DNA of 64,000 nucleotides from an uncultured virus (IMG/VR IMGVR_UViG_3300021376_000011) (taxonomy: Duplodnaviria; Heunggongvirae; Uroviricota; Caudoviricetes), in IMG/VR virus record IMGVR_UViG_3300021376_000011; one strand, 5' to 3'. A program made the position numbers and the translations under genes. The notes beneath the pieces were generated by a model that was given only the letters and a program-made list of their open reading frames with translations, ran no database searches and was not told where the DNA came from. Below, one piece after another: positions 22,952 to 62,440 of this stretch (the stretch's first letter is position 1; the number at the start of each line of letters is the position of its first letter).

Positions 22952-23152
22952 ATGATAATCGTAAACGTCAACAAAGAAAAAAACCTTGAATCAGCATTAA
23001 AAAAATACAAATACAAGGTTCAAAAAACTAAACAAATCGAAAAACTTAGAAAAAAACAAGAATATGTTAAACCATCGGTTGAAAAAAGAGATAAAAAATT
23101 AAAGGCGATTTATAAGCAGCAATTGTTTACCGATAAAGAAAAATCAAATTAA
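22952..23152 (+). CDS. rpsU: Ribosomal protein bS21
   Basis: MIIVNV...NLESALKKYKYKVQKTKQIEKLRKKQEYVKPSVEKR is the bS21 pattern; 66 aa and very basic. Confidence 0.9.
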   Translation: MIIVNVNKEKNLESALKKYKYKVQKTKQIEKLRKKQEYVKPSVEKRDKKLKAIYKQQLFTDKEKSN

Positions 23153-32562: not shown

Positions 32563-34581
32563 ATGTCAGTAGATTTTTTCGAAGAAGGAAACACAACCAA
32601 CCCAAAGAAAACAAGAAAGGGTTCAACCACCCCTATCCTTGATAACTTTTCAAGGGATTTAAACAAAATGGTAGAAGAGGGTAAAATTGACCCAATAATT
32701 GGGAGAGATGGTGAGGTTAAAAGAATTGCACAGATATTATCTAGAAAAAAGAAAAACAACGTAGTGATAATTGGTGACGCGGGTGTGGGTAAATCGGCTT
32801 TAGTTGAGAAACTCGCTCAGATGATTGTAAAAGGAGATTGTCCATCAAATCTTTTAGACAAACGAGTTGTATCATTAGATTTAACATCTTTGGTGGCTGG
32901 TACAAAATACAGAGGTCAGTTTGAAGAACGTATTAAAGCAGTTCTAAACGAAATACAGAATGAACCTAATGTAATTGTGTTTATTGATGAAATACACACA
33001 ATGGTTGGTGCTGGCAACGCTAGCGGGTCAATGGACGCCGCTAATATTATGAAACCCGCATTAGCTCGAGGAGAAATTCAATGTATTGGGGCGACAACAT
33101 TTGATGAATTTAAAAAACACATCGAGAAAGATGGTGCATTAGTTAGAAGATTTCAAAAAATAATTTTGAAAGAACCAAGTAAGGAAGAAACAGTTCAAAT
33201 TTTAAAAAATTTAAAAGATTCATATCAAAATTTTCACAAAGTATTTTATGAACCGGAGGTTTTTGAAACTATCGTGAATTTGTCATCAAGATTTATCACA
33301 GACCGTCAGTTTCCCGATAAAGCAATTGACGTGATGGATGAATTGGGTTCAGAAAAAAAAATAAATACCAAAATTCCTGAGATTATTGAAAAACTAAAAA
33401 AGGAATCTGATGATTTAAAAAATAGGAAGATAGAAGTTGTAAAAAGTCAAAACTATGAACAAGCGGCTAAATTAAGAGATGAAGAAAGAAAATTACTGAG
33501 TAAATTAAATGATGAAAAAAAGAAGTGGTTAGACAAACAAAAAGACAATAAAACACCCGTAACGGTTGCAGATGTATATGAAATGATTTCACAAATTACA
33601 GGTGTACCTCTCTCTAAGATTGATGATACAGAGACCGCAAATCTTTTGAACTTAGAAGAAAAATTAAAATCTAAAGTAATTGGTCAAGACGAGGCTATTT
33701 CAATAATTTCCAAATCAATTAGAAGAAATAGGGTTGGTATTAAAGATACAAATAAACCAATAGGTTCTTTTATATTTTTAGGTTCAACTGGTGTTGGTAA
33801 AACATATCTCGCAAAATCGATTGCTGAACTACTTTTCGGAGACTCCGAAAAAGTAATTCGTGTTGATATGAGTGAATACATGGAAAAACACAACGTGGCA
33901 AAATTAATTGGTTCACCTCCAGGTTATGTTGGTTATGATGAAGGAGGCCAACTTACTGAGAAGATTAAAAATAATCCATTTTCTGTGGTATTGTTCGATG
34001 AGGTTGAAAAAGCACACAAAGACGTTTTCAATATCTTACTTCAAATTTTGGATGAAGGACATTTAACCGATTCGTTTGGAAGAAAAGTAAACTTTACAAA
34101 CACTATAGTAATCATGACATCCAATATTGGTGCAAAAAAAGTATCTGAATTTGGTAAGGGTGTTGGTTTTAGTTCATCATCTTCAGAATCACAAAACTTT
34201 GAGGTTAAAAAATCAATCGTTCAAAAATCATTAAAACAACACTTTAACCCTGAGTTTTTGAATCGAGTAGACGACATAATCAGTTTTAATTCGTTAGATA
34301 AAGATGTAATTAAAAAGATTATTGAAATTGAATTAAATAAGTTGTCTGTTAGATTAAAAGAAAAAAATTATAAAGTTTCTTTTGATAAGACAATTGTGGA
34401 GAGAATATCGGAACTTAATATTCAAGAAGATTTTGGTGCAAGACCAGTTAAAAGAATCATCCAAAATATGTGTGAAGATTATTTAAGTGATTCAATCTTA
34501 AAAGGCGAAATTAAGGAGAATGATTCCATTAATTTAAAATTTAAAGACGGTGAAATAAAAATTTTTAAAAAAAGGGTGTAA
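32563..34581 (+). CDS. Clp/Hsp100 ATPase (ClpC-like, no N-terminal Clp repeat)
   Basis: Two AAA+ modules (GDAGVGKS...FIDEIH; GSTGVGKT...LFDEVEKAH), UVR-like YEQAAKLRD, GSPPGYVGY. Confidence 0.93.
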   Translation: MSVDFFEEGNTTNPKKTRKGSTTPILDNFSRDLNKMVEEGKIDPIIGRDGEVKRIAQILSRKKKNNVVIIGDAGVGKSALVEKLAQMIVKGDCPSNLLDKRVVSLDLTSLVAGTKYRGQFEERIKAVLNEIQNEPNVIVFIDEIHTMVGAGNASGSMDAANIMKPALARGEIQCIGATTFDEFKKHIEKDGALVRRFQKIILKEPSKEETVQILKNLKDSYQNFHKVFYEPEVFETIVNLSSRFITDRQFPDKAIDVMDELGSEKKINTKIPEIIEKLKKESDDLKNRKIEVVKSQNYEQAAKLRDEERKLLSKLNDEKKKWLDKQKDNKTPVTVADVYEMISQITGVPLSKIDDTETANLLNLEEKLKSKVIGQDEAISIISKSIRRNRVGIKDTNKPIGSFIFLGSTGVGKTYLAKSIAELLFGDSEKVIRVDMSEYMEKHNVAKLIGSPPGYVGYDEGGQLTEKIKNNPFSVVLFDEVEKAHKDVFNILLQILDEGHLTDSFGRKVNFTNTIVIMTSNIGAKKVSEFGKGVGFSSSSSESQNFEVKKSIVQKSLKQHFNPEFLNRVDDIISFNSLDKDVIKKIIEIELNKLSVRLKEKNYKVSFDKTIVERISELNIQEDFGARPVKRIIQNMCEDYLSDSILKGEIKENDSINLKFKDGEIKIFKKRV

Positions 34582-36265: not shown

Positions 36266-36665
36266 AATTTACTTAGATGATGTAAGAACCCCCGTTGATA
36301 AATAAAATTGGGTAGTGGTTCGTTCCTATGATGAATTGGTTCAAAAGATAACCGAGATTGGTTTAGATAATGTTGAGTTGATTTCTTTAGACCACGACTT
36401 GGGTGATAGCGCAATGAAAGAATGGTTACACGGTGTAGTTAAAAACTACGAAATCAACTACGACAATATCACCGAGAAAACAAGTATGGACTGTACCAAA
36501 TGGTTAGTTAATCAGTGGTTGGATGGAAAACCTGTTGTTGATGTGGTTGTACATTCAGCCAACGCGGTTGGGAGTGCTAATATGATGGGGTACATCAATA
36601 ATTATAGACATATCCACAGATTACCCCAAAACTGTGTGAGAGTTCAGTGGGACCATACGGTTTAA
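36255..36665 (+). pseudogene. Cyclic-phosphate-processing receiver domain gene with an in-frame TAA at codon 17
   Basis: ATG 36255 reads MKYKIYLDDVRTPVDK*NWVVVRSYDE...ISLDHDLG...VHSANAVG; stop at 36303-36305. Confidence 0.75.
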
Positions 36666-38206: not shown

Positions 38207-38292
38207 GCCGCTGTGTTGAAACAGGTAGACAAGAGAGACTTAAAATTTCTTGGACAGTAATGTCCGTGCCGGTTCGATTCCGGCCAGCGGTA
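38207..38292 (+). tRNA. tRNA-Leu(TAA)
   Basis: GCCGCTG/CAGCGGT acceptor, AGAGA-CTTAAAA-TTTCT anticodon arm, long variable arm, GGTTCGATTCC. Confidence 0.92.
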
Positions 38293-38356
38293 CAAAAATG
38301 GAAAACTCCTCAAATCTACAACTACGGTTATCGTAGAAGGAAATTTCCATTTTAAT

Positions 38357-38428
38357 GGGCCCATAGGTAAAGGGATATACCCTCTCACTTCTAATGAGAT
38401 ATTCCAAGTTCGAATCTTGGTGGGCCTA
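38357..38428 (+). tRNA. tRNA-Arg(TCT)
   Basis: GGGCCCA/TGGGCCT acceptor, TCTCA-CTTCTAA-TGAGA anticodon arm, CCAAG-TTCGAAT-CTTGG T-arm. Confidence 0.92.
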
Positions 38429-38590
38429 CGAATTTAAATGATGTCTCTTTCTATGACAATTTGAACATAAAAGAACACATTTATTAAGTTCATTTTTGAT
38501 TGATTCATCAGACTTCAATCTGAGTTTTGACCAATCAACATCTTTTTCAGAAGGATTTAAATGGTGAAAATCAAAAATGACATATGAACG
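38426..38590 (-). pseudogene. HNH endonuclease C-terminal remnant
   Basis: FDFHHLNPSEK...ELNKCVLLCSNCHRKRH; the first CxxC and the N-terminus are absent. Confidence 0.65.
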
Positions 38591-38755
38591 ATTGAACTTT
38601 TGTTCGTACAGATTGTGGTAATTGGACATGTCATATGAATCCCTCGGGACATAAAAAGGTGGCAAATGCTGTTATCACACAGATGAAATTCAAAGTAAAA
38701 AACTAATATCGCCGATTTAAACGATAATTCATTTTATCGGTTATTTCGACGATAC

Positions 38756-38829
38756 GGTCCCTTAGCTCAGTTGGTCAGAGCACCCGACTCATAATCGGTA
38801 GGTCCACGGTTCAAGCCCGTGAGGGACCA
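38756..38829 (+). tRNA. tRNA with CAT anticodon, probably tRNA-Ile2 (lysidine type)
   Basis: GGTCCCT/AGGGACC acceptor, CCGA-CTCATAA-TCGG anticodon arm; resembles ileX-type tRNAs and lacks initiator features. Confidence 0.85.
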
Positions 38830-38855
38830 CGAGATATTTATATAATAAAAAAATC

Positions 38856-39308
38856 ATGGGAATTGAATTAAAAAAGAAAAAACAACTTATCGAAAGATTA
38901 AACAAAAGACTCCTATCCGAAGCGGAAATGGAATGTCCTAAAGCAACTCAAGATTTAGAGTTAAATACCAATAATAGAGACAAGTCAATAAAAGCGGATT
39001 ATATAAAATATGGTCCACTTAATATTGACGAACCCGGTGATTATTGGGAAATGGTTGCATCTGATTGGAACACCACTGTTGAAGCTGCTAAAAAATCACT
39101 ATGTGGTAATTGTGTAGCATTTGATATATCACCAAGAATGGATGAGTGTATGCCAGGTTCGGTTTCTGATGATAGTGGTAGATTAGGGTACTGTTGGATG
39201 CATCACTTTAAATGTCACTCCGCAAGAACATGTAAAACATGGGCAAAAGGTGGTCCAATTACCGAAGATACGGTGTCCTATGAGTGGCAACAAAAAAATC
39301 AAAAATAA
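38856..39308 (+). CDS. Cys-rich hypothetical late protein
   Basis: LLSEA site, CGNCVAF, GYCWMHHFKCHSARTC; late motif at 38835. Confidence 0.65.
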   Translation: MGIELKKKKQLIERLNKRLLSEAEMECPKATQDLELNTNNRDKSIKADYIKYGPLNIDEPGDYWEMVASDWNTTVEAAKKSLCGNCVAFDISPRMDECMPGSVSDDSGRLGYCWMHHFKCHSARTCKTWAKGGPITEDTVSYEWQQKNQK

Positions 39309-39377
39309 TATCAACATGTGGTCGTACCCTTAACTCCAAAACCTATTAAGGAAATCGTTATGGGAAGACCACTCCAA

Positions 39378-39452
39378 GCGGGAGTAGCTCAGTGGTAGAG
39401 CATCGCCTTGCCAAGGCGAGGGCCGTGGGTTCAAATCCCATTTCCCGCTCCA
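39378..39452 (+). tRNA. tRNA-Gly(GCC), CCA encoded
   Basis: GCGGGAG/TTCCCGC acceptor, CGCC-TTGCCAA-GGCG anticodon arm, GGTTCAAATCC, TCCA end. Confidence 0.95.
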
Positions 39453-44127: not shown

Positions 44128-44703
44128 GGGGGTGTATGGAATTGATTGGCGTTGATATGGTAAATGGGCACGTAGTCGGATGTCATCTACGACTTTAATC
44201 CACGGTGGTAAATTTTAAACGGCAACGTTTATAACCAAATGGAAGTAGCAGGTCTTCTTGCGACTTCTAAAGTTGCAGCCTAATTGGTTGTAACTAACGG
44301 GTCGACGGACAGATAACCTTGGAACAGAAGTCCTTGTAGGGTGTGGTTTCTATCCTAAAAGAAACAAAGTGGAAGATTAGTTCTCAGTAAACCGAACCAC
44401 TTTAAAATAAGGGAATTGTGAATTTCGGAGTATTAGAAAATACTGTCCTAAACGTGTAGTCCATTTATTGTATTGCGAGCAAGACGCGGGTTTTTAATCG
44501 AGCCCCTTCATATCGTGAGATATGTCGAAAATCGGATGAACTCAGGGGAAGTCTTTTAGATAATCCTGAGCCAAGCCTGATAGGAACAGGAAGGTGCAGA
44601 GACTAGTGGGTGATAGACGCTTCTATCGTAATACCACATTAGCGTCCGACATCTCGTTGAGATGATGATATAGTCCAATAATTGTCGAAACCCGCCACCT
44701 CCA
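44128..44703 (+). ncRNA. ssrA: tmRNA, interrupted by a group I intron
   Basis: GGGGGTG/CACCTCC-A acceptor with G3:U70; tag ORF 44221-44283 GNVYNQMEVAGLLATSKVAA*; T-arm GCGGGT|TCGAAACCCGC restored by removing 44492-44684. Confidence 0.9.
44492..44684 (+). mobile_element. Group I intron without an ORF (IC3-like core) in the tmRNA T-loop
   Basis: Core elements AATCCTGAGCCAAG, AAGGTGCAGAGACT and GATATAGTCC; exon ends in U, intron ends in G; IGS GCCC pairs the exon GGGU and intron TCGA can pair the 3' exon TCGA. Confidence 0.88.
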
Positions 44704-44717
44704 CATTAAAGGGAACC

Positions 44718-45239
44718 TCAAAAGGGTTCCCTTTTATTTTTAATTAAAATACTAATTAATTCATGAATATACGCATCATCCATTTCATTTTTCATCCAAT
44801 TAATTGCCCTTGAAACCCATCTAACATTTCCTTTAACATAACCTAATTTATTATCTATCCTATCTAAAGACGCAGAATATATTGGATTCTTTTTTATTTT
44901 GGTATATGATGACAACTCTAATTTTATACCACTGAATGGACAAATTCCATTTTGTAAAACCCATTGATTAGACAAATCTTCAATAGTTAAATCAATAATT
45001 TGATTTCTTTTTTTAATATTTCTAAAATGATATTTGAATTTTGAATATTCCCCACCTCTATTATTTGAGTGTCTTTGTATATCGTATCGATTTTTAACGT
45101 TTAATAAATTTTTAGTATTGTTAATACCAACACAATTTCTTGAACAAAAATTAGGTCTATTTAATTTTTTATTACGATTTAATTCAGAATTTGATTTTTC
45201 AAATTCAATCCCACAGCTTGAACAAATACATTTTCCCAT
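44718..45239 (-). CDS. Free-standing putative homing endonuclease (His-Me/HNH-like) with N-terminal Zn ribbon
   Basis: CSSCG...FCSRNC; QNGICPFSG...ASLDRIDNKLGYVKGNVRWVSRAINWMK. Confidence 0.75.
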   Translation of the reverse strand: MGKCICSSCGIEFEKSNSELNRNKKLNRPNFCSRNCVGINNTKNLLNVKNRYDIQRHSNNRGGEYSKFKYHFRNIKKRNQIIDLTIEDLSNQWVLQNGICPFSGIKLELSSYTKIKKNPIYSASLDRIDNKLGYVKGNVRWVSRAINWMKNEMDDAYIHELISILIKNKREPF

Positions 45240-45304
45240 TTTATTACTTTATTATAAATATGGAGATAATGGGAAAAGTATGGAGGTGTTACTAATTAAA
45301 TAAT

Positions 45305-45329
45305 AAACCCACCAATTGGTGGGTTTTTT
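45305..45329. terminator. Likely bidirectional terminator
   Basis: AAACCCACC-AATT-GGTGGGTTT with A/T tracts on both sides. Confidence 0.75.
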
Positions 45330-45478
45330 GTTTTAAGGACACTTTGTCCTCGATATTGTCTTTGAGAGGTATATAACGAACAAAGAGGTCAATTCAGACC
45401 CCTTTGCCGAGATGTGGAATACCTCCTTTCGTTTTTAGTCTAATTATCATCTCATGGCGACCAAACCATTTGATTCTA
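45305..45478 (-). ncRNA. Candidate structured late small RNA containing GAAAGGAGGUAUUCCA
   Basis: Late motif at 45481-45488 pointing leftwards, terminator at 45305-45329, and a hairpin (45381-45406) with G:U on the minus strand but A:C on the plus strand. Confidence 0.55.
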
Positions 45479-45503
45479 ATTATAAATATCTTGTAATCTT
45501 AAT

Positions 45504-46466
45504 TTAGACGTATTTTTTTGCTAAAGTTTTTAATAAACCTATACCTAAAATTCCAGCTAAGGGGTTCACAGATTCCCCTCCTTGATTTGTGTTTGAATCA
45601 CCTTCAATTTGACTTAAATCATCGGGAGTCGTGTTTTGTGCAATGTATTGACTAACTGTTGGGTCATTAGCTAAAGCATTTTTAAATCTATCATCAAGCA
45701 TCGCTCTATCGAGTTGGTTCATACTTAAATTGGGTAAGCCAAACATTTTTGCAACTTGACTTGATATGACAATTGACCTAAACATGTCTTTTCTTGATTG
45801 TCTTCCTGCTCTTGTTATATTCCACCATTTACTCAACCAATTGCTAGGTTCCATACCTTTTTTCGCAATATACTGAGCTAATTTTTCTTCTCTAAAGAAT
45901 GCTTTCATACCTGTTGCCACAGGTCCTCTACCTGACATCATTTTAAGATAACCAGCCGAAGGTTGTGTTGCAATCTCTTTACCAATTCTTTGAGTCATTT
46001 GTACAGGTCTTAATTTAGATGCTGTGGTTTTTAGAGAACTAAGACCATCAGTCATTTTTTGACCCCAACCCTTGTTTATATTTGATACTGAATTTATTGT
46101 TTGTTTTACACCAGCATCGTCAAAGTGTTTTGACATCTTTAAGAATTGTTCTTTCGCACTTGGATTTTGCATCAAGTATTTAGCTAAATCATCACTACTC
46201 CTAAGAGCTGTTTTACCAGCAATACCTGCGCTCTTTAATACTCGAATAAATGGTTTAACTATAAAGTCACCCACTGTAGGTATAAGCGCGACTAACATCA
46301 ATGCTGCGTATAGATATTCTTTTTTATAGATATATCTAATAATCAATATAATGTCAGCGATTTCACCAATTACAGGTACAAATCCCGCTACCATTAGAAT
46401 ATTTTCTAATGTATCTTCTTTTAATACTTTTTTATTTTCTATTATTTGTTTTTTAGTGAATTCCAT
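45504..46466 (-). CDS. Putative head-packaged membrane-active protein
   Basis: VLKE-D site, then hydrophobic hairpin AGFVPVIGEIADII...LIPTVGD (pre-toxin TG-like). Confidence 0.55.
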   Translation of the reverse strand: MEFTKKQIIENKKVLKEDTLENILMVAGFVPVIGEIADIILIIRYIYKKEYLYAALMLVALIPTVGDFIVKPFIRVLKSAGIAGKTALRSSDDLAKYLMQNPSAKEQFLKMSKHFDDAGVKQTINSVSNINKGWGQKMTDGLSSLKTTASKLRPVQMTQRIGKEIATQPSAGYLKMMSGRGPVATGMKAFFREEKLAQYIAKKGMEPSNWLSKWWNITRAGRQSRKDMFRSIVISSQVAKMFGLPNLSMNQLDRAMLDDRFKNALANDPTVSQYIAQNTTPDDLSQIEGDSNTNQGGESVNPLAGILGIGLLKTLAKKYV

Positions 46467-52517: not shown

Positions 52518-53450
52518 TTAAATATTCGGATAATCTAACATTTTTTTAATACCATCTTTTAATTGTATAAAATTATTATAATTTGTACAATTTTTTAATT
52601 CATCTAAATCAGGTTTTCTCCATTTAGTATCGTTCTTCCAACCTTCTTTATAGATAACGTTGAACTCAATACCCATGATTTCGTGAATTACTTTTGATAA
52701 TTCATTTATTGTCACCTCTTCGTCAAAACCAATATTTAAAATTTTATCATTAACATTTTCAATCAATTGATTCATTATGTCGGTATGGTTTGTAACATAA
52801 CAAAAAGAACGAGTTTGTTTACCATCACCAAACAAGTAAAATTGTTCGCTCGATTTAATTCTTTCTATAAATTCAGGTATAACTTGTCCGTAACCGTTTG
52901 TTGCCATTCTTGGTCCATAGGTATTGAATGGTCTAACGATTAGATAATTTTTTTGATTTTCCCTAGCCCATAATCTAACCAAATACTCACCTATTGCTTT
53001 TGATGACGCATAAGAATCTCTATCGGATAATGAATCTAAAATTATATATTCAGTTTCTTTTGTTGGGACTTTAGGTTCGGGACCATATACTTCAGAAGAC
53101 GACGCATAAACAACTTTTCTAACTGACTTTCCACAGGATTCTAAAATGTTTTGTGTTAAAAGAATATTATCATTACAAACTTTGTACGGTATGTCATAAA
53201 AATACTTTGTTCCGTTGATTGCTGCATAGTGTACAACAATTTCAGGATACTCGGTATTCATCATAATCTTTGTTTGACTTAAATTCCTTAAATCAATTTC
53301 GTAAAACCTAAAATTATCATGAATCGGTAAATTTGATTTTTTACCTCTGAAAAAATTATCAACACCAATAACTTGATGTCCATTACTTAAAAGAGAATCA
53401 CATAAATGTGAACCTAAAAATCCAGCGGCTCCTGTGACTAAAATTCTCAC
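52518..53450 (-). CDS. NAD-dependent epimerase/decarboxylase (UDP-glucuronate decarboxylase-like)
   Basis: VTGAAGFLGSH, ASSSEVYG, YASSK, RPFNTYGPRM, GDGKQTRSFCYV. Confidence 0.9.
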   Translation of the reverse strand: MRILVTGAAGFLGSHLCDSLLSNGHQVIGVDNFFRGKKSNLPIHDNFRFYEIDLRNLSQTKIMMNTEYPEIVVHYAAINGTKYFYDIPYKVCNDNILLTQNILESCGKSVRKVVYASSSEVYGPEPKVPTKETEYIILDSLSDRDSYASSKAIGEYLVRLWARENQKNYLIVRPFNTYGPRMATNGYGQVIPEFIERIKSSEQFYLFGDGKQTRSFCYVTNHTDIMNQLIENVNDKILNIGFDEEVTINELSKVIHEIMGIEFNVIYKEGWKNDTKWRKPDLDELKNCTNYNNFIQLKDGIKKMLDYPNI

Positions 53451-54248
53451 TTATTTTCTCATCCCTTTTGGGACCTTTTTTATAAATTTATCATTTTCCT
53501 CATCAATAAATTTGAAAATGTCAACATCGATATTATATTTTTTACAAAGAACTTTCATAGCTTTGGTGTCCTTAGGTAAACAAGGGCCCGCGTATCCACC
53601 AAACTCTTCATTTACGTTCAAATAATGACTTTCACCCACTCCGTGAAATAAAAACGCATCTTTAATCGCGCCATAATTAGCTCCAAAATGTTGACAAACT
53701 TTGTGGAATGAATTCGCAAATGTAATTTTTGTTGCTTTATAAGTGTTTGAAAAATACTTCATTAATTCAGCTTCAACAATTTTCATTTTTACCCTATGAA
53801 TAGGTAAATTACCATGACTTTCAACAATTAAGTTATAATCGATATCATTTTCAGTCCCAACTACAAGTATGTTATTATTAAATACAAAATCATTATATGC
53901 GCATCTTTCTTTTAAAAATTCCGGTACAAAAACAAATCTACAATTTGGATAAACTAATTTTAATTTATTAGTTGTTCCAGGTTCTACCGTGCTTTTTATT
54001 GCAATTAAACCGTTATAGTTTAATTCATCTAATTGACTCACCACACTGCTTACCGCGGATAAATCACATTCTTCATTTAAACCAATTATCGTACTAACCG
54101 TTAAGTATACGATTTCACAACCTAAAACATCCTCTATTTTTGTCTCAGGCATTTTTATATCGTAAATAGATACTTCGTGTCCAATATATTCAAACCCATC
54201 TTTAATTGCTTGACCCACAACACCAATACCAATGACTCCAATTTTCAT
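53451..54248 (-). CDS. UDP-glucose/GDP-mannose dehydrogenase family (short form)
   Basis: GIGVVG, IKSTVEPGT, PEFLKE, AELMKYFSN, GYAGPCLPKD. Confidence 0.9.
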   Translation of the reverse strand: MKIGVIGIGVVGQAIKDGFEYIGHEVSIYDIKMPETKIEDVLGCEIVYLTVSTIIGLNEECDLSAVSSVVSQLDELNYNGLIAIKSTVEPGTTNKLKLVYPNCRFVFVPEFLKERCAYNDFVFNNNILVVGTENDIDYNLIVESHGNLPIHRVKMKIVEAELMKYFSNTYKATKITFANSFHKVCQHFGANYGAIKDAFLFHGVGESHYLNVNEEFGGYAGPCLPKDTKAMKVLCKKYNIDVDIFKFIDEENDKFIKKVPKGMRK

Positions 54249-54253
54249 AAAAT

Positions 54254-55963
54254 TTAATTTTCTCTTCTTTCGTCGGGTTGATAGTGTTTAATTCTATCAT
54301 GCCAAATCGGTGACGCTAATAATACCGCAGGTCTTAGTTTATTTTCTTTTGTTAATTGATACATATATGACATCCACGTTTGTTCAAATGGATGTGCCCA
54401 TTTTGTTTCTATGAACATTTTATAATTACCTTCTTTACTAACAATCATTGGCCAATTTGCATAATAAATTTCACCGTCGATATAAGATAATCCATCCATA
54501 CTTTTAATATTCTTAAAATTAGTTAATGGTACATTTGGGTCTAAACCTGTCACAGGTAATTTATCATAGTTGGGCCAATCTCTTGTTCTAATTGTTTGTG
54601 GCACATTGTACCAAGAACATTGTTTGTCGTTATCAAAATATACTTCAGTAAATGACAATTTAAGAAAATCAAATTGTTCTTTTAACATTATTCTGTGAAC
54701 CAAATTGTAAAGATTGGGGATGTATTTTCTAAATCCGTTTCTACAAAATTGACCTTCAATTTCAGGAGGATTAACGGTCATATCGTCTTCAAAAAAGAAC
54801 ATAAAATCAGCATCAGAATTATGAAAATGTTCTGACGCCGCTTGTCTACCTCCACAAATACCGGTGTTACCCCCTAAACTAACATATTCAAATTTAAAAC
54901 TTTCAGCGATTTCCCTATTTTTATCTCGAGATTCTTGGGTTGTTGAATTATCGAGTAAAACTAAATGCGGTCTATTTAACCAATCGGGCGTTTTTTCCAT
55001 TGATGTAATGGTGTGTAAAACCTGCTCAGCGAAATTAAATGTTAAGACGTATAAATTTGTTTTAACCTTTTCAACATCCCTATCTGTGTACTTAATAAAT
55101 TTTTGGGATTGGGTTATTTTAGGTGCAACGATATCTACTTTTTTATCAATAATCGCTTGGGTAAATTTCACAATCAAACCATTACCATCTAATTCAAATC
55201 TTTTGTACAAGTGAGGTTCATTGTATGACATCAAAGTAAAGACACTTTCCTCTGTTCCCATGTAACCCGTATTCAATGTGTTAGTCAAGATTGAATAATA
55301 TGTTGCATTTGCTTCGTGTATTTGTTGTTTGTGTCCACCGAACAAACCACCTCGACAAACATATTCTACCTTCGTTCGTGCAATCTTATTCATTTCAGTA
55401 AAAGTGAAACCATGAATTTCATTTTCGGCTTGATATGGATAACTTAAAAATAAAAATGGATTACCATATTCAGGTAATTTATTTAAGATGTTATTTTCAG
55501 TTATATGTGTGTGAGGCACAGTATTTGTAATTCCCGCATCTAACCAAAAGAAATACTCAGTGTCAAATGGATTCCAAATTGACGCGTCATTTAACATAAA
55601 CATTTTAGATTGAACTATTGGGTTATAGTATTCCAAAACTGCTTGTGGTGAACCCGATAACCAACCAGCTTGATTTAACCAATCAGGACATGTCCTTATT
55701 TCTTGAGTTTTATTCCAAAAAGGGTCGTATAATCTTTTTATATCTTCCAATTCGGTTATTCGTACATATGTATTCTCTCTACTTCGTTTTTCCCAAACCA
55801 AATATTCATATTCCGCTGGTATATAAATGAATAAATTTTGTGGAATATCTAAGAACATTTTGAAGTGTTCAATATAATGTGTAAAATCCCTCCCCGGTCT
55901 ACCAATATTCCATAAACCAGTAACAATAGTTAAATTTTTATTAATCTCTTGATTCATCACCAA
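54254..55963 (-). CDS. HtrL/YibB-like glycosyltransferase fused to a GT2-like domain
   Basis: TIVTGLWNIGR...SKMFML...FWLDAG...GGLFGG...GTEE; second domain LDNS...NTGICGGR...FFEDD. Confidence 0.7.
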   Translation of the reverse strand: MVMNQEINKNLTIVTGLWNIGRPGRDFTHYIEHFKMFLDIPQNLFIYIPAEYEYLVWEKRSRENTYVRITELEDIKRLYDPFWNKTQEIRTCPDWLNQAGWLSGSPQAVLEYYNPIVQSKMFMLNDASIWNPFDTEYFFWLDAGITNTVPHTHITENNILNKLPEYGNPFLFLSYPYQAENEIHGFTFTEMNKIARTKVEYVCRGGLFGGHKQQIHEANATYYSILTNTLNTGYMGTEESVFTLMSYNEPHLYKRFELDGNGLIVKFTQAIIDKKVDIVAPKITQSQKFIKYTDRDVEKVKTNLYVLTFNFAEQVLHTITSMEKTPDWLNRPHLVLLDNSTTQESRDKNREIAESFKFEYVSLGGNTGICGGRQAASEHFHNSDADFMFFFEDDMTVNPPEIEGQFCRNGFRKYIPNLYNLVHRIMLKEQFDFLKLSFTEVYFDNDKQCSWYNVPQTIRTRDWPNYDKLPVTGLDPNVPLTNFKNIKSMDGLSYIDGEIYYANWPMIVSKEGNYKMFIETKWAHPFEQTWMSYMYQLTKENKLRPAVLLASPIWHDRIKHYQPDERREN

Positions 55964-55976
55964 CTCTTTATTTATT

Positions 55977-56753
55977 TCATTTGTTTCGTAATCTGTTATA
56001 CGTGTTTTTTATTCCTTGTTCTAATCCAACATACTCAATTCCTAAATCAATAAAATTTCCGCAATATTTTTTACCTATTATAGAGTCGTTAAGGGTTGGT
56101 GATTTGAACTCACCTAAATTATTTATCATCTGTAGAATTTCTATAGTTTTAAAGGTTTTATTGTAAGTACATTCATGAATTTTTGGTAGAATATCTTTAT
56201 CACTAAAGATAAAATATTTTACCAACCTTGTAAAGTCTTCCATATAAAAAAAATCCATTTCTTTATTTTCATATAAAACAAATGGCTCCTCCTTGATGTA
56301 TCTTACTATATTCGACTTTATAAATCTTGTGTCAATCTCGTTTTCATCAAAAACTGCAAACAATCTTATATTAAAAAAATTATCTTTTTCTAAAATGGAA
56401 TTATGGATAACTTTTTTACTTAAACCATATGGTGACTCACTATTGAAAATTTCTGCACCCGAACCCAAATTAATAAATCTATCAAACCGATTTTTACAAC
56501 CTAAAAGATTAAAATACATCTTCAAATTCTCATCCATTATTTGAAAATCATCTTTTTTTAGTCTACTTCCTCCAATTACTGCGCAATGTAAAACAACATC
56601 GAAATATTTGTCTGAAAAAAATTTCAAAGTTTCAAAAGAGTCGGTTAAATCAAAATCTTTTCTCGATATCCCAACAACATTAAATTGATTTTTTAAACTT
56701 TCAAACAATGATTTACCTATGTATCCATTTGCTCCTGTAATTAGTATTCTCAT
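55977..56753 (-). CDS. NAD-dependent sugar epimerase/reductase
   Basis: ITGANGYIG, HCA, GSGAE, YGLSK. Confidence 0.85.
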   Translation of the reverse strand: MRILITGANGYIGKSLFESLKNQFNVVGISRKDFDLTDSFETLKFFSDKYFDVVLHCAVIGGSRLKKDDFQIMDENLKMYFNLLGCKNRFDRFINLGSGAEIFNSESPYGLSKKVIHNSILEKDNFFNIRLFAVFDENEIDTRFIKSNIVRYIKEEPFVLYENKEMDFFYMEDFTRLVKYFIFSDKDILPKIHECTYNKTFKTIEILQMINNLGEFKSPTLNDSIIGKKYCGNFIDLGIEYVGLEQGIKNTYNRLRNK

Positions 56754-57226
56754 TTTTTTAAATTAATATAAACAGGAGAATTATTATTAACAGCAAAATT
56801 AAAATCATTTTCTAATTCATCCTGAGTATGTGGTTTAAATAATTTAAGATTTTCAAATATGCTTAGAGCAGCTAAATCTTCACTAGCCCAATGTGAGAAT
56901 CCTAAATAACCATAATCTTCATTTCTACCACCACCTAATATCTTTACAGGAATATTTTCATGATTAACGTAATTTCTAATCATTTCAAATGGTCTATAAA
57001 TAGCAAACGGTGTAATTGAATATACAAATGGTATTTTATTTTCCATCGCTAGTCCAATAGCTATGCCCATCATAGCCATTTCAGATGACCCCACATTAAA
57101 AAATCTATCAGGAAATATATTCATAATGTCATCCCATAAACCATAACCTAAATCACCTGTAATAAGATAAATATCAGGATTAGATTTCATTTCATTAAGC
57201 AATAATTTAGCAAATTCTCGTCTCAT
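56750..57226 (-). CDS. Transketolase-like, pyrimidine-binding subunit
   Basis: TGDLGYG, FFNVGSSEMAMMGIAIGLA, RPFEMIR, GFSH. Confidence 0.88.
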   Translation of the reverse strand: MRREFAKLLLNEMKSNPDIYLITGDLGYGLWDDIMNIFPDRFFNVGSSEMAMMGIAIGLAMENKIPFVYSITPFAIYRPFEMIRNYVNHENIPVKILGGGRNEDYGYLGFSHWASEDLAALSIFENLKLFKPHTQDELENDFNFAVNNNSPVYINLKK

Positions 57227-57846
57227 AATAATTGTTCTAATGCTGTTTGGTAATCATTTTCTTTCATTATATGGTAGTGAGCATTTAATCCTTTAAGAAA
57301 TGAAAAATGTTCTACTGTAGTGTAATGGATATTAATATTAGATAGAAATGATTTTAATCTATTTGTCAAATATTCAACGTCTACTTCTCTATAAGCTGCA
57401 TATCCATTTACGTTAACATGTACCTCAATGTTTGTAATGTTTTGTTCAACTATGGTTTTAAGAGATTCCCAAACACTACCTTCAGCACACTCACCATCAC
57501 TTAATAACACATATACTTTTCTATTTAGATTAGCAATTGCTCTTCCTAGGGCAATAGTAATACCTAAACCCAAACTACCTGTTGAGCAACATATACCCGC
57601 TTCTTCATCCCAATGTGGGTGTCCACCATGTTTTAAAAATAATGCTTCAGCATCTTGTCCTCTATATTTTTCCAAGCAAACGTATAATGCTAATGCGGCA
57701 TGGCCTGATGATAAGATGAATATATCATCTTTATTCATTTTTTGATAGATACTATCAATTATTTCTAGTGCTGAGAAATAACTACCAAGATGACCTAATT
57801 TATGTTTATAGGCGATTTCAACTATTCGTTTCTTTAGCTCTACCAT
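57223..57846 (-). CDS. Transketolase-like, ThDP-binding subunit
   Basis: GHLGSYFS, FILSSGH, GGHP, STGSLG, SDGECAEGSVWE. Confidence 0.88.
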   Translation of the reverse strand: MVELKKRIVEIAYKHKLGHLGSYFSALEIIDSIYQKMNKDDIFILSSGHAALALYVCLEKYRGQDAEALFLKHGGHPHWDEEAGICCSTGSLGLGITIALGRAIANLNRKVYVLLSDGECAEGSVWESLKTIVEQNITNIEVHVNVNGYAAYREVDVEYLTNRLKSFLSNINIHYTTVEHFSFLKGLNAHYHIMKENDYQTALEQLL

Positions 57847-58787
57847 ATAAATTTATTTTTATAATATTCTACTATTTTTATTATTTCATCATCAAAATTT
57901 TTCAATGGTGTCCAACCTAATGACCTCATTTTAGAATCGTTTAATGAATATCTCATATCCATACCGGGTCTGGAATATGTTAAATCAATAAAATCATTTG
58001 GGTCGTCTTTACCATGGTAAATTTTCACTATTTTACTCACGGTTTCGTAATTTGTCTGTTCGTAATTTGATGAGATATTAAAAATCTCATTTACTCTATT
58101 TGAATTTATTATTGTTATTACGGCCCTTGCAGTATCTTCAGCGTGTAACCAATTTCTAATTGGGAAACCATTGTTATGTAAAGGTATTTTTCTACCTAAT
58201 ATTAGATATTTGCAAGTTTTTGGTATAAGTTTTTCAACGTATTGACCAACACCATAATTGTTTGTTGGTCGAATAATTACATATGGTAAGTTATACGTCC
58301 TACCCCACGCAACTATTAATTGGTCTGCGGCTGATTTGGTTGCAGAATAAGGATTACTTGGTTTTAAGATATCATCTTCATTGTGTTCACCATTAAGTAT
58401 ATCACCATATACCTCATCGGTACTAAAATGTAATAAAACAGGTGTCTTTGACGTTTCTAAACGATATGTTCTAATTAATTCCAATAAATTATGGACACCA
58501 TTAATATTACTTGAGACAAATTCATTACTATTTGATATTGAATTACCAACGTGGGTTTCTGCTGCGGTATTAATCACATAGTCACAATCATATAAAAATT
58601 TTAAATCATTAATATCACTTTTAACAAATGTGAAATTTTTATATTCATTAAATTCTTTTAATAATTCTTTATTTGATGCATATGTCATTTTATCAACACC
58701 CATAACATACCACCCTAAATTCAGACATTCTCTTGTAATATGAGAACCAATAAAACCTAAACAACCTGTTATGTAAACTACCTTCAT
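57840..58787 (-). CDS. NDP-glucose 4,6-dehydratase (RmlB-like)
   Basis: TGCLGFIGS, DKMTYA, AAETHV, STDEVYG, PYSATK, NNYG...EKLIP. Confidence 0.9.
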   Translation of the reverse strand: MKVVYITGCLGFIGSHITRECLNLGWYVMGVDKMTYASNKELLKEFNEYKNFTFVKSDINDLKFLYDCDYVINTAAETHVGNSISNSNEFVSSNINGVHNLLELIRTYRLETSKTPVLLHFSTDEVYGDILNGEHNEDDILKPSNPYSATKSAADQLIVAWGRTYNLPYVIIRPTNNYGVGQYVEKLIPKTCKYLILGRKIPLHNNGFPIRNWLHAEDTARAVITIINSNRVNEIFNISSNYEQTNYETVSKIVKIYHGKDDPNDFIDLTYSRPGMDMRYSLNDSKMRSLGWTPLKNFDDEIIKIVEYYKNKFIW

Positions 58788-59926
58788 TAATTAAAAAATT
58801 TTATAATTTTATCTGTCACGTAATCAACATCATCAATATTCATCCCATGGTGTGCACCAAGTAAAAACCCATTTCTCATAATCATGTCTGAGTTTTTAAA
58901 TGACTTTAAATAATTTCTATACGCTGGATGTCTTGTAACATTACCAGCAAAAGTTACTCTTGTTTGTATATTATTTTCCTCTAAGAAATGAAGTAAATCG
59001 TACCTGTACTCACTTTGTAGTGGGATAGCCAACCAATTGGGTTTTATTGAATCATCGGGTAAAATAATGTCACCAACACCTCTTAAATTATTAATGTATC
59101 TTTCTATATTATTTCGTCTTATTTGTTCAAAATTTTTAAATCTATCTAATTGTACTAAACCAAATGCCGCATTCATTTCCGAACTTTTAAAATTATAACC
59201 CAACACCGAATACAAGAATTTGTGGTCGTAAGGAATTCCGTCAACAGAATGGTTAAATCTGTCAGACATTATTTCAGAATTATCTCCTAACCTTCCCCAA
59301 TCTCTGTATTGTAAGCATACGTCTCTTAATTTGGTGTCATTGAACATAACCATACCCCCCGAACCACCAGCTGTAATCACATGACTAGCGTAAAAACTTG
59401 TTGTTGAGATGTCCGATTCTAATGTGTGAGTTATAGTGTCAGCAGAATCCTCAATTAAAATAATATCCCCTCTACCAATTTCGATTAAACATTCTTTTAA
59501 TAATTTCCAATTGGGTTTGTTACCAATAAGATTTGGTAGCATAATGACTTTAACTTCATTATCAACCAAAGAAATTATTTCACTTACAGTTGGTACATAA
59601 GAGTTTATACCAACATCACAAAATACAGGTATTAAACCTAATTGAATTATAGGTGCTAAAGTTGTTGAAAATGTACAAGAGGGTGTAATCACCTTAGTTC
59701 CCTTGTTTAATTGTAAACAAGCTAATGATAATAAACAGGCGGACGAACCGCTGTTCACAAAAACACCGAATTTTTTACCAAAAAAACGACTAATTCTTTC
59801 TTCAAATTCAATCGTTTTAGGTCCAAATCCGGCAATCCAACCATCTCTTAAACAATTAACAACCGCTTGTATTTCCTCCTCACCATATGACTCAAACTTA
59901 TTAGGTGCGTACCATATTTTTTTCAT
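58787..59926 (-). CDS. DegT/DnrJ-fold PLP enzyme, likely NDP-4-keto-6-deoxyhexose 3-dehydratase (DdhC/RfbH-like)
   Basis: FVNSGSSA, IEDSAD, SFYASHVIT (His where aminotransferases have Lys), RDWGR, YDHKF, TRVTFAGN. Confidence 0.8.
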   Translation of the reverse strand: MKKIWYAPNKFESYGEEEIQAVVNCLRDGWIAGFGPKTIEFEERISRFFGKKFGVFVNSGSSACLLSLACLQLNKGTKVITPSCTFSTTLAPIIQLGLIPVFCDVGINSYVPTVSEIISLVDNEVKVIMLPNLIGNKPNWKLLKECLIEIGRGDIILIEDSADTITHTLESDISTTSFYASHVITAGGSGGMVMFNDTKLRDVCLQYRDWGRLGDNSEIMSDRFNHSVDGIPYDHKFLYSVLGYNFKSSEMNAAFGLVQLDRFKNFEQIRRNNIERYINNLRGVGDIILPDDSIKPNWLAIPLQSEYRYDLLHFLEENNIQTRVTFAGNVTRHPAYRNYLKSFKNSDMIMRNGFLLGAHHGMNIDDVDYVTDKIIKFFN

Positions 59927-59935
59927 AATGTTTTT

Positions 59936-60781
59936 TTACATCCAACCTAATTGAATAAATCTCATGTGGTTGTCGTCAATATTTTGATTCCTGTGTATGT
60001 TACAACCCTCGATACCTTCGTGTGTTGTATGTCTGATTACTGGAAATGTGGTGACACCACCTTTTTCTCTCCATTGTTCAATGGTGATAAGTGGTTCTTC
60101 GTCACTGTAAAATCTAACCAATTTCTTAAATCCATGTTTACCCATGTATGCAGAAAATGATACGTCATCATTCCATGATACGTCCATAAACTCCTTATAT
60201 AAATCATCTTGGAAAAAATATCTTTGATAAGAAATTGTTTTATAGTGTTGTAAAAATTTTACATACACGTCTTTATAAACGGAAACAACAAAAGTGTTTC
60301 TAACATCATCAAAATCACTCGGGTTCTCACATCTACTTCCATCATATCCACAAGCGGTGTCAGTATAGGTTTCTTGATTTTTAACTTGTTCTTCAACCAT
60401 CTTGGGGTGATAAACTAAATCATCATCACATACAATCAAAATAGCGTCTCTTTCGGTAACTCTTTTTAAGGTGGGAACTAACTTTGTCATAGTACCTAAA
60501 TCATCTAAACCTTCAAAAATTTTAAATTTAGGATGTTGTTGTGACAACTCTTTCATCCATTCTGGTATAACGTAAGGTTCACCGGTTAATTTACTTACAG
60601 ACGGTACGTTTAAATGTATTTCATATTCACCATTATATTCTTGTTCTATTAATGATTTAATATTACTTTTTATCCCTGTATCATATTCCGCCGAAAGTCT
60701 TGATGGGATTGTTGTTAATGTTACGATAACTCTTCTCTTATGTTTCATAATTAAATTTTTAATTGTATTCAGAATTGACAT
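59936..60781 (-). CDS. Glycosyltransferase (GT-A-like)
   Basis: VTLTTIPSR, DLGTMTKL, IVCDDDLVY, NDD. Confidence 0.7.
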   Translation of the reverse strand: MSILNTIKNLIMKHKRRVIVTLTTIPSRLSAEYDTGIKSNIKSLIEQEYNGEYEIHLNVPSVSKLTGEPYVIPEWMKELSQQHPKFKIFEGLDDLGTMTKLVPTLKRVTERDAILIVCDDDLVYHPKMVEEQVKNQETYTDTACGYDGSRCENPSDFDDVRNTFVVSVYKDVYVKFLQHYKTISYQRYFFQDDLYKEFMDVSWNDDVSFSAYMGKHGFKKLVRFYSDEEPLITIEQWREKGGVTTFPVIRHTTHEGIEGCNIHRNQNIDDNHMRFIQLGWM

Positions 60782-60784
60782 AAT

Positions 60785-61636
60785 TTATTTTTGAGTGTAA
60801 ATTTTATTGTTATTTTGGGTAAATTCATCAAAAATTCTATCATGCATATAACCCATATGGTGACCGCATTGAGCTCTAAACTCATTAAATCCCGAATCAG
60901 GAAATAATATCTGTCTTACGATTGGGAAAGAATGTGAACCTCTTCCATTATTGTTTACAGACCTCCAGTCCGTCTCATTTTCCCAAGTTGCAACAATATA
61001 TGGTCTTTCCCTTAATCTAAAATAATAACCTGTTAATACATCATCATTTGTTGCCATGGATAAAAATGATTCATCCATAAAATCATCACTAAAGTAATTT
61101 CTTAGATAAGATACCGAATGCCAATGACCGGGTTGAATAACTTGACCATCGTATTTTATTGGGAAATAAAAATGTGTAGGACTTAAGGTATATTTAACAA
61201 TACCATCACTGTCTAACCACTCTCTTTTTTCAATACAATTATCACCCCTGAAACAAATCATAGCTTCAGGGTATTGAGACATCTTTTTTAAATGGTATTC
61301 TAACATGTCTTCGTGGTAAACATGGTCATCATCACAAACAATCATTATGTCGTCGGGATTTGTGATATAGAGTAACGCTCCTGTAATTTTAACCACGGGA
61401 CCATAATCTTTCTCAACGCGATTAATTATTAATTTAGAATTTTTATTTACAAAATCAATTAAGTCATTTGAGATGATGTATTCTTCATCGTTATTATTTT
61501 TATACTTGTATGGTATATTTAACAATACTTTGTAATCTTTATCTGTCTTCTGATTCAAAAGAGAGGTCAGATTTTCTTTAAATGAATCCCAAAGATTTAT
61601 TCTTTTAGGTACTGTTGTAAGTGAAATGTAAATCAT
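60785..61636 (-). CDS. Glycosyltransferase (GT-A-like), paralog of the neighbouring gene
   Basis: ISLTTVPKR, DYGPVVK, IVCDDDHVY, NDD. Confidence 0.7.
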   Translation of the reverse strand: MIYISLTTVPKRINLWDSFKENLTSLLNQKTDKDYKVLLNIPYKYKNNNDEEYIISNDLIDFVNKNSKLIINRVEKDYGPVVKITGALLYITNPDDIMIVCDDDHVYHEDMLEYHLKKMSQYPEAMICFRGDNCIEKREWLDSDGIVKYTLSPTHFYFPIKYDGQVIQPGHWHSVSYLRNYFSDDFMDESFLSMATNDDVLTGYYFRLRERPYIVATWENETDWRSVNNNGRGSHSFPIVRQILFPDSGFNEFRAQCGHHMGYMHDRIFDEFTQNNNKIYTQK

Positions 61637-61637
61637 G

Positions 61638-62423: not shown

Positions 62424-62440
62424 TTTTTCTTTATCTTTAA

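Follow-up and report, generated by a model that had tools for sequence, protein, structure and literature searches.

The window analysed here is a stretch of 64,000 nucleotides (nt) from an uncultured virus of the Caudoviricetes (IMG/VR record IMGVR_UViG_3300021376_000011), and the element in question is a small-RNA gene of about 175 nt, present in single copy on its minus strand (45298-45490), in a minus-strand gap of 264 nt between an open reading frame (ORF) of 320 amino acids (aa; 45504-46466) and the ORF of an HNH-type endonuclease (44718-45239). Read 5' to 3' on that strand, the gene consists of the promoter-like motif GATATTTATA, a hairpin (P1) with the loop UUUGGUCG, an A-rich linker, the Shine-Dalgarno (SD)-like tract GAAAGGAGGTATTCCA, ATCTCG, a 10-bp hairpin (P3), TTCGTT, ATACCTC, a small hairpin and a terminator (45329-45298). 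An earlier note on this DNA had described a late small RNA with a 16-nt complement of the 16S rRNA 3' end, in a phage encoding the ribosomal protein bS21, and all its statements about the sequence are correct: positions 45430-45415 read GAAAGGAGGTATTCCA on the minus strand; the late-type motif GATATTTATA stands in the sense orientation at 45490-45481, and a hairpin with a T-run at 45324-45298; no ATG, GTG or TTG is found at SD spacing, ATC lying 8 nt 3' of GGAGG; GAGGTAT can pair with ATACCTC, and AACGAA with TTCGTT; and the 18-codon ORF MIIRLKTKGGIPHLGKGV exists. The small RNA represents an undescribed, strongly conserved structured RNA family of bS21-encoding jumbo phages.

This family was collected with search patterns that leave the SD-like tract unspecified. 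The first pattern, made of the P1 loop, a gap and the 3' strand of P3 with TTCGTT, returned 40 loci with 27 distinct sequences; the second, made of the P1 loop, ATAA and ATCTCG, returned 99 stretches, of which 80 loci were analysed. The pooled set, including one locus on a genome contig, amounts to 61 distinct sequences, and the relatives lie in contigs of jumbo T4-like phages of a bS21-encoding group that infects freshwater Bacteroidota. A covariance model built from the 61 sequences has one strong match in the window (45362-45480, 112.8 bits, E 1.7e-21) and a single strong match per record in nine of ten phage records, the tenth of which breaks inside the upstream ORF; the second, weak matches in two records are ORF ends and terminators and not paralogues. 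Over 185,579 species genomes the first pattern had two hits: a contig of 7.4 kb in the bin of a Flavobacterium metagenome-assembled genome (MAG) carries a true copy, and a match in a Bryobacteraceae MAG (L083) is due to chance. An exact scan of IMG/VR with the 16-mer had given 29 loci, namely four of the same phage, two diverged homologues of the whole element (L027 and L032) and 23 unrelated contexts; some of these last are ordinary ribosome-binding sites before an ATG and the rest lie in coding or other non-coding contexts, and they were set aside.

Rfam 15, applied to the whole window at its gathering thresholds, reports only four tRNAs and a group I intron, and the small RNA belongs to none of its families; on 45290-45500, with E values allowed up to 10, 45 weak matches were obtained, all below the gathering score and none on the body of the RNA, the best being isrJ (25.3 against a gathering score of 37) on the terminator part. 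A full-text literature search found no published description of the small RNA, and a term search of the main text of PMC9723584 gave no occurrence of tmRNA, small RNA, non-coding or intergenic. Among the INPHARED phage records, nothing matched except the endonuclease gene, in three crAss-like records.

The conservation of the family is that of a structure. In the alignment of the 61 sequences, 98.2% of the cells of P1, P3 and a candidate hairpin P2a are paired, versus 45-59% when the partners are slid, and 55 cells are changed on both sides versus 21.3 +/- 5.1 in shuffles, none of 500 of which reached 55. P1 (45449-45474, minus strand) has an inner stem UGG/CCA (45468-45466 with 45457-45455), which closes the loop at 45465-45458, and an outer stem interrupted by an internal loop; its outer pairs co-vary (for example TTTGGC.../...GTTAAA), pair 16:29 being UA in 26, UG in 17 and CG in 12 of the 61, while its GG/CC pairs and the invariance of its loop are uninformative because both were fixed by the search patterns. 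The linker block ATAA (45444-45447, minus strand) was specified in the second pattern, yet it is invariant in all 27 sequences of the first, where it was left free, and so is AUCUCG (45408-45413, minus strand). The AUC of the latter stands 8 nt past GGAGG, and its AUCUC is able to pair with GAGGU to form the weak hairpin P2a (5 bp with one G-U, predicted at -3.3 to -4.5 kcal/mol), in which none of the five pairs has undergone a compensatory change. P3 (CAAAGGGGUC/GACCUCUUUG, loop UGAAUU; 45381-45406, minus strand) is documented by covariation, with changes on both sides in five of its ten pairs (pair 92:103 is GC in 33 and UA in 23 sequences) and 98.4% of its cells paired, and in many relatives its loop is swapped for a UUCG or a GNRA (GCAA or GUAA) tetraloop.

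Two further pairings concern the tract itself. UUCGUU (45375-45380, minus strand) can pair with AACGAA (45432-45427 region), in competition with a G-U extension of P3; on the AACGAA side C is replaced by U in 5 of 27 sequences (AAUGAA), on the other side UUUGUU or UUGUU occurs, and the pairing is kept throughout through G-U, an observation made by inspection and without column counts because the alignment register shifts between two versions of the tract. The anti-SD-like AUACCUC (45366-45372, minus strand) pairs with the tract in the minimum-energy fold of the window RNA, where an 8-bp helix GGAGGUAU/AUACCUCU occupies it. The pairing of GAGGUAU with AUACCUC, in which the earlier note had seen a possible switch, is used in the window's own fold, but it is confined to a subclade, as ACCTC or CCTCC occurs within 39 nt past P3 in only 7 of the 61 relatives; this pairing may add regulation in its subclade and is no feature of the family.

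The strand can be read from the same alignment. G-U pairs are frequent (for example 43/61, 22/61 and 21/61), and in P1 and P3 they would be A-C mismatches on the plus strand, from which it follows that the minus strand is the RNA strand. The predicted fold agrees: -56.6 kcal/mol for the minus strand of the window (z -5.7, none of 200 shuffles as good) against z -3.2 for the plus strand. A plus-strand reading, in which the RNA would copy the 16S 3' end or imitate helix 45, was rejected on the misfit of the G-U pairs, the worse fold and the fact that the likeness to 16S ends with the tract. The proposal of a non-coding RNA encoded on the minus strand is thus supported. A promoter-like element ATATTTAT is also conserved upstream in 60 of 61 relatives, TATTTAT being present in all 61 and the distance fixed.

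In the window this promoter-like element is GATATTTATA, with the core TATTTATA (45481-45490, minus strand), 14 nt past the stop codon of the upstream ORF. The TATTTATA-type 8-mer occurs 23 times in the window in the sense orientation, and 14 ORF starts, among them those of the portal, terminase and bS21 genes, have one within 40 nt upstream; by our own arithmetic 23 copies are about what base composition predicts, so that the placement of the motif is informative and its number is not. It behaves like a late-gene motif in what it precedes, and from this association with structural genes, the sole basis of the label late, we infer its promoter function and late timing. Its sequence is not that of T4: the sense motif is the reverse complement of the T4 late consensus, and identity with a T4-type late promoter was rejected. 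At the portal, the terminase and two other ORFs the sense-strand motif stands only 3-5 nt before the ATG (window 25708, 27536, 10665 and 50792 are among the sites); were it a -10-like late promoter element, the mRNAs of these genes would have little or no leader, and otherwise it may play a role in translation initiation. At the other end of the small-RNA gene, the intrinsic terminator ACCCACCA/UGGUGGGU with its U-run (45298-45329, minus strand) has a symmetric form that could also halt transcription of the plus strand. By a crude criterion, a terminator-like hairpin lies within 130 nt in at least 26 of the 61 relatives, and in those that do not carry the endonuclease gene one terminator serves both the small RNA and the convergent gene of a transfer-messenger RNA (tmRNA). 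A conserved promoter-like element, two covarying helices and a terminator, as read from the sequence and not from observed transcript ends, are the marks of an independent small-RNA gene.

Among relatives that had been collected without reference to it, the SD-like tract is conserved, with GGAGG in 59 of 61 and GGGGG in the other two, and its consensus AAAGGAGGU(R)UUC is nearly invariant. In the window the conserved part is the 13-nt AAAGGAGGUAUUC (45417-45429, minus strand), within the 16-mer at 45415-45430, and it is the complement of the single-stranded 3' tail of Bacteroidota 16S rRNA. The 16S end given in the earlier note is right, ...GGAACACCTCCTTTCT being present in the 28 Flavobacteriaceae loci read (30 fetched), all of which terminate ...GCGGCUG-GAACACCUCCUUUCU. 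The last 15 nt form the free tail, since the preceding bases close helix 45 by a pairing visible in those 16S sequences. When the 61 RNAs are anchored on GGAGG, the match to the complement of the tail is 98-100% over AAAGG, 97% at the next A, 100% over GG and 95% at U; the base that follows is polymorphic (A 40, G 18, U 3), the three positions beyond it (U, U and C) match at 95%, 84% and 79%, and the next C falls to 25%, precisely at the first base whose pairing would require the invasion of helix 45. Of the 16-nt complement that had been proposed, 13-15 nt are therefore conserved and end with the single-stranded tail, and conservation does not extend to the last CCA, whose pairing would involve helix 45.

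In the window sequence alone the evidence is modest: the 16-mer with up to three mismatches has two matches where 0.74 is expected, and 15 of 100 shuffles reach two; conservation is what lifts the tract beyond chance. The gene starts of the window are far weaker: a 4-nt SD core precedes just 4 of 71 ORFs, and the upstream pairing is -7.7 kcal/mol at best, with a median of -0.9.

The tail itself varies at a single position, which faces the polymorphic base of the tract (A 40, G 18 in the RNAs; U 27, C 33 in the genomes). This comes from a survey of 401 sampled Bacteroidota genomes, of which 60 matched the probe and 27 of those 60 have the variant end GGAATACC; host tails are GAACACCUCCUUUCU or GAAUACCUCCUUUUU-like. 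Genomes of the U type end ...CCUCCUUUUU or ...UUUUA in 17 of the 20 read, UUUCU in two and UUUAU in one, and those of the C type end ...UUUCU in 20 of 20. As an observation on the bacteria themselves, the sample (G140-G535) thus holds two tail types, GAACACCUCCUUUCU in 33 genomes and mostly GAAUACCUCCUUUU(U/A) in 27, whose differences are linked, C going with C and U mostly with U, and which should matter for the extended SDs of rpsU there. The extra-A version of the RNA (40/61) suits the CCUCCUUUU(U/A) tails of U-type genomes. By full version, AAAAGGAGGUA (23 sequences) is perfect for U-type tails; GAAAGGAGGUA (17 sequences, the window included) is perfect for the rarer U...UUUCU type and makes a terminal G-U with the common U type; and AAAAGGAGGUG (16 sequences) has 13 contiguous pairs with the C type. 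The 16-mer of the window is therefore the perfect complement of a real Bacteroidota tail type and not of the Flavobacteriaceae one, and the element of the Flavobacterium-labelled bin is the G version, which matches the C-type tail of that family.

Against the C-type tail the contiguous Watson-Crick runs of the 61 RNAs are of 9 (25 RNAs), 10 (17), 12 (4), 13 (12) and 6 (1), with a G-U in the core in the remaining two. The predicted duplexes with 17-nt tails, taking the better of the two types, average -23.0 kcal/mol (range -18.2 to -26.5), those of the window RNA being predicted at -23.7 to -28.0; with a mean opening cost of 6.3, the net energy over all 61 is -14.4 kcal/mol (range -6.1 to -18.6). 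The tract thus has the predicted pairing expected of an rpsU-type extended SD, that is, at least 9 contiguous base pairs and less than about -13 kcal/mol, and these comparisons of sequences support the view that it would behave as a pairing partner of the 16S tail.

The host element to be compared with this tract is the extended SD of rpsU. According to PMC9976891, the ribosomes of Bacteroidia bury the 16S tail under bS21, bS18 and bS6 and do not normally use SDs; in Flavobacteriales rpsU alone typically has an extended SD, of 9-13 bp, which is preferentially used by bS21-free ribosomes and so provides autoregulation of bS21, and the rpsU mRNA needs no initiator tRNA to take its position on ribosomes. 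The tblastn step parsed rpsU in 15 of 30 Flavobacteriaceae loci; in their initiation regions (A)GAAAGGAGGU is separated from AUG by 8-9 nt, and some regions read AACGAAAGGAGGUG, that is, 13 nt identical to the phage tract and its left flank. In rpsU GGAGG is followed by 9-10 nt and AUG; in the small RNA it is followed by 8 nt (41/61; range 6-12) and the invariant AUC, past which P3 begins after another 6-8 nt. The rpsU duplexes with 17-nt tails have a mean of -19.4 kcal/mol (range -17.1 to -21.1, n=15), so that the small RNA is predicted to pair no less strongly than the host element. Like the extended SD of rpsU (PMC9976891, PMC7797042), then, the small RNA has a contiguous complement of the 16S tail of 9-13 nt or more in a setting where other genes are SD-less, and it shares with it the core (A)GAAAGGAGGU, the start spacing and a similar or stronger predicted energy. 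Unlike rpsU, its tract precedes neither rpsU nor any conserved ORF, the phage bS21 ORF being 22 kb away; AUC replaces AUG and is followed by a stable hairpin; the tract sits within a structured phage RNA with its own promoter motif and terminator; the complement is shifted towards the 5' part of the tail (GAAYA); and the resemblance to the sequence of rpsU leaders ends with the tract.

The phage to which this RNA belongs encodes a bS21 of its own. The bS21 ORF (66 aa, 22952-23152, plus strand) lies among minus-strand structural genes, its product is 41-46% identical to Flavobacteriaceae bS21 and its start has no SD; in a 171-kb record that has the focal 281 nt at 100% identity, it matches PF01165 with an E value of 4e-12. 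Near-identical contigs range from 46 to 171 kb and relatives reach 334 kb. That bS21 is a property of the phage group is supported by its presence in 13 of 17 records, including all three that are at least 90% complete, the four records in which it was not found being 21-54% complete. Pfam recognizes in the window a Gp23-type capsid protein, a T4-type portal, a prohead protease and a T4-type terminase, and the GC content is 32%. All this fits the group described in PMC9723584, with genomes of 293-331 kb and 31-34% GC, a reverse-strand bS21 within the structural block that is expressed with the late genes, and predicted Bacteroidetes hosts, mostly Flavobacteriia.

The model that we favour, tentatively and at somewhat less than an even chance, is that the small RNA mimics the initiation region of rpsU without being translatable and would capture 30S subunits whose anti-SD is free. 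The RNA would be transcribed from the TATTTATA-type promoter motif of the phage, which also precedes the structural genes and bS21. The tract, held between P1 and P3 and probably pairing only weakly within the RNA, would pair with the whole single-stranded 16S tail, as the extended SD of the host rpsU does, and translation would be blocked by the presence of AUC in place of AUG and by the stable hairpin 6-8 nt further on. As bS21, bS18 and bS6 normally keep the anti-SD of Bacteroidota covered and rpsU is the only gene to rely on it, the RNA would bind those 30S subunits that lack bS21 or would extract the tail from its pocket. The competition with the host rpsU mRNA would blunt the autoregulation of the host bS21 and/or ease its exchange for the phage bS21, and the SD-less mRNAs of the phage, that of its bS21 included, would be left untouched. 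The idea of the earlier note, an RNA that addresses ribosomes with an exposed anti-SD, survives in this model as the best-supported reading, the tract being indeed complementary to the tail, and it is only trimmed to 13-15 nt. The complete chain of events, in which a dedicated phage RNA captures or creates anti-SD-free 30S subunits, shuts down the autoregulation of the host bS21 and hands the bS21 site to the phage protein, is a bolder proposition, and we hold it as doubtful.

Several observations weigh against the mimicry model. The site in the window is the best of 127,962 20-nt windows for the 13-nt tail only marginally (-17.2 versus -16.5, -16.5 and -16.4 kcal/mol), and in folding its GGAGG core is mostly paired, with a mean unpaired probability of 0.26 that exceeds 0.5 in only 7 of 61 RNAs; the usual partner of the core is the equally invariant AUCUC, so that conservation of the tract could serve an intramolecular helix. 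The correspondence of A/G with U/C is a match of two polymorphisms and not a demonstrated co-variation, as there are no known phage-host pairs, and none of the 61 sequences combines a G at each of the two polymorphic positions with an intact U at position 11, as a perfect fit to the Flavobacteriaceae tail would require, the only two (G,G) sequences being the GGAGGGG variants. The co-occurrence with bS21 is not independent evidence since it all comes from one phage lineage, and the assembled contigs of four RNA runs, out of five that cover small shares of the stretch, are unable to show strand, ends or level and give neither a transcription start, nor a strand, nor an abundance for the small RNA. 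Finally, the P1 loop UUUGGUCR, AUAA and AUCUCG are as conserved as the tract, and the model does not explain them. This last point also speaks for a structured phage RNA with some other role, in which the likeness to an SD would be incidental or serve local structure only; it might pair with some host or phage mRNA, be a partner of the 320-aa protein or of the tmRNA, or act as a 3'-end processing or stability element of the upstream mRNA. The tight synteny with the 320-aa ORF (28/40 loci) and the tmRNA gene (24/40) would suit such a role, and so would the contigs of relatives from two metatranscriptome studies (163 and 267 nt, depth 3.6 and 5.4), which extend over the promoter motif, from the end of the upstream ORF to the 5' half of the RNA, and are compatible with read-through or DNA carry-over. 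A 13-15 nt match to exactly the free tail, the matching polymorphism and the rpsU-like spacing of AUC would nevertheless be a notable coincidence, the RNA has its own conserved promoter motif (60/61) and often its own terminator, and the searches suggested no function for the 320-aa protein, so that we judge this explanation unlikely, although its chance is a substantial one.

A serious rival is offered by the hairpin itself, whose GAGGU/AUCUC pairing resembles an SD/anti-SD duplex and has a precedent, since PMC12054373 describes the binding of bS21 to an intramolecular SD/anti-SD mimic, the stem P6 of OLE RNA. The small RNA would then be a decoy or a carrier for the bS21 protein, its helix (GGAGGU with AUCUC, or with AUACCUC in the subclade of the window) binding the free host or phage protein, with the consequence that the host bS21 would be titrated off the ribosomes or the phage bS21 held. 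RNAalifold and the single-sequence folds set GAGGU opposite AUCUC in most members, the hairpin alone has the predicted stability given above for P2a, its two strands are nearly invariant as would be expected of a sequence-specific protein site, the 8-bp helix of the window's own fold is of the same kind, and the phage encodes bS21. Like OLE RNA as described in PMC12054373, the small RNA is non-coding, belongs to a bS21-linked system and carries SD- and anti-SD-type sequences able to form an intramolecular helix; OLE RNA, though, is a Bacillota RNA of about 600 nt with a true CCUCCU copy, whereas the family-wide partner here is AUCUC, with one G-U and no covariation. This absence of any compensatory change in the five pairs of the helix counts against the decoy, as does the fact that a true anti-SD core, ACCUC, lies downstream in only 7 of 61 relatives, AUCUC not being the canonical CCUCC. 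Such a decoy would, moreover, leave unexplained the match to the 16S tail of the flanking AAA and (R)UUC, which are in the loop of the helix or beyond it, and the parallel between the A/G variation of a loop base and the U/C variation of the tail; it appears improbable to us. More improbable still, to the point of being a very slight chance, is that the tract is the genuine ribosome-binding site of a tiny ORF, either the 18-codon ATG ORF or a mini-ORF starting from AUC (ISAKGS-stop in many relatives). The spacing from the SD to AUC is ideal, the overlapping ATG ORF is there in the window and the AUC frame stops after 6-7 codons in 31 of 61 relatives, mostly within the P3 loop. Conservation does not follow a peptide frame in the 61 variants, however, and it is the structure that is kept. 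Only 23 of the 61 have the ATG, with peptides unrelated in length and sequence, and on these grounds the 18-codon ORF was rejected as an explanation. The AUC frame extends from 6 to more than 17 residues among the relatives (12 to more than 17 codons in the UUCG and GNRA variants, 26 in the window) and has no conserved product. The changes in P3 are compensatory for pairing and not synonymous, AUC is an unusual start codon, and Bacteroidia ribosomes do not normally use SDs (PMC9976891). A variant of the same phage in another sample (L018/L057) bears on the same ORF: at the equivalent of window 45395, in the P3 loop, G is replaced by T, which kills the stop of the 18-codon ORF (TGA to TTA) and makes the TAA typical of the loops of relatives, the rest of the 120-nt core being identical.

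The neighbourhood of the gene follows a conserved order, namely the 320-aa ORF, the small RNA and the convergent tmRNA gene. Homologues of the 320-aa ORF (45504-46466, minus strand) lie directly upstream of the RNA in 28 of 40 loci with 30-80% aa identity (100% in four loci of the phage itself), the columns of the RNA averaging 69-76%; for the protein, Pfam, PHROG, PDB and Atlas provided no assignment. The tmRNA gene (44128-44705, plus strand), which lies outside the small RNA as its syntenic context, is downstream and convergent in 24 of 40 loci and carries a group I intron in its T-loop (44492-44684), with a score of 68.8 bits for RF00028; RF00023 reaches 35.4 bits, below its gathering threshold of 47. 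The 5' exon ends with U and the intron with G, and after excision of the intron in silico the sequence is recognized by ARAGORN as a tmRNA, its acceptor stem having G3-U70 and its tag being GNVYNQMEVAGLLATSKVAA. In 9 of 40 related loci the tmRNA can be called by ARAGORN directly and is presumably intron-less. Contigs of relatives in the RNA runs extend past 44492 with an intron-less T-loop sequence, and the deep coverage of the tmRNA region comes from relatives and possibly from other organisms. Between the small RNA and the tmRNA gene, the free-standing HNH-type endonuclease gene (44718-45239, minus strand; phrog_3322, E 6.5e-22), which comes with a TATTTATA motif of its own, occurs in 13 of 40 loci and is absent from the others, where the RNA abuts the tmRNA; the relatives named for its presence or absence are L043, L044, L049, L051, L061, L062, L075, L078 and L081. 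It looks like a homing endonuclease that exploits conserved RNA genes as its target region. Elsewhere in the window, four tRNA genes (Leu-taa, Arg-tct, Met-cat and Gly-gcc) lie at 38207-39452 on the plus strand, and a 79-aa ORF with an HNH-like CxxC...H motif (38426-38665, minus strand) is placed on the opposite strand between two of them. Other cargo (32563-34581 and 36315-36665, plus strand; 52518-63978, minus strand) includes a ClpB-like double AAA+ ATPase, a cREC_REC receiver-like protein, PhoH, a dUTPase, a dCMP deaminase and a sugar-nucleotide and glycosyltransferase block of about 11 kb with epimerases, a DegT aminotransferase, a split transketolase-like pair and an FkbM methyltransferase. 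A RegB-type GGAG nuclease (PF10715), which might have been a partner of the RNA, was not found in five phage records, a result of little weight as the control genomes were also silent.

Small stable RNAs of phages and the trapping of the 30S subunit both have precedents to which this RNA can be related. T4 produces stable small RNAs beside its tRNA genes (species 1 and 2, rnaC/rnaD), and huge phages encode tmRNAs; the present RNA is likewise a small phage RNA, presumably stable, near translation-related RNA genes, without an apparent relation of sequence or structure to the T4 RNAs, for which complementarity to the 16S tail is not reported. In Escherichia coli, the pseudoknot of the rpsO mRNA with S15 traps the 30S subunit on its platform, a mechanism known as entrapment. 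The small RNA would similarly pair its SD with the anti-SD and present a folded RNA just past the start position, but the rpsO element is a cis-acting leader that needs a repressor protein, whereas the phage RNA stands alone and has no ORF.

Phage-encoded bS21 is the commonest viral ribosomal protein, and this small RNA may bear on how it takes over the ribosomes of the host. PMC9976891 speculates that bS21 phages encode factors that aid the exchange of bS21, which autoregulation would counter. If the complete chain of events proposed above is true, the RNA would be this missing exchange factor and the first natural trans-acting RNA known to regulate ribosomes through pairing with the anti-SD. 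The circuit of Flavobacteria in which bS21-free ribosomes are specialised is a recent description, and a phage RNA that resembles the sole SD-dependent initiation region of the host links the two subjects, a link that can be tested cheaply, as F. johnsoniae strains, 30S preparations and rpsU reporters exist. Even if the model fails, the result is a new RNA family with at least 61 sequence variants, carried beside a phage tmRNA gene by jumbo phages that are abundant in lakes.

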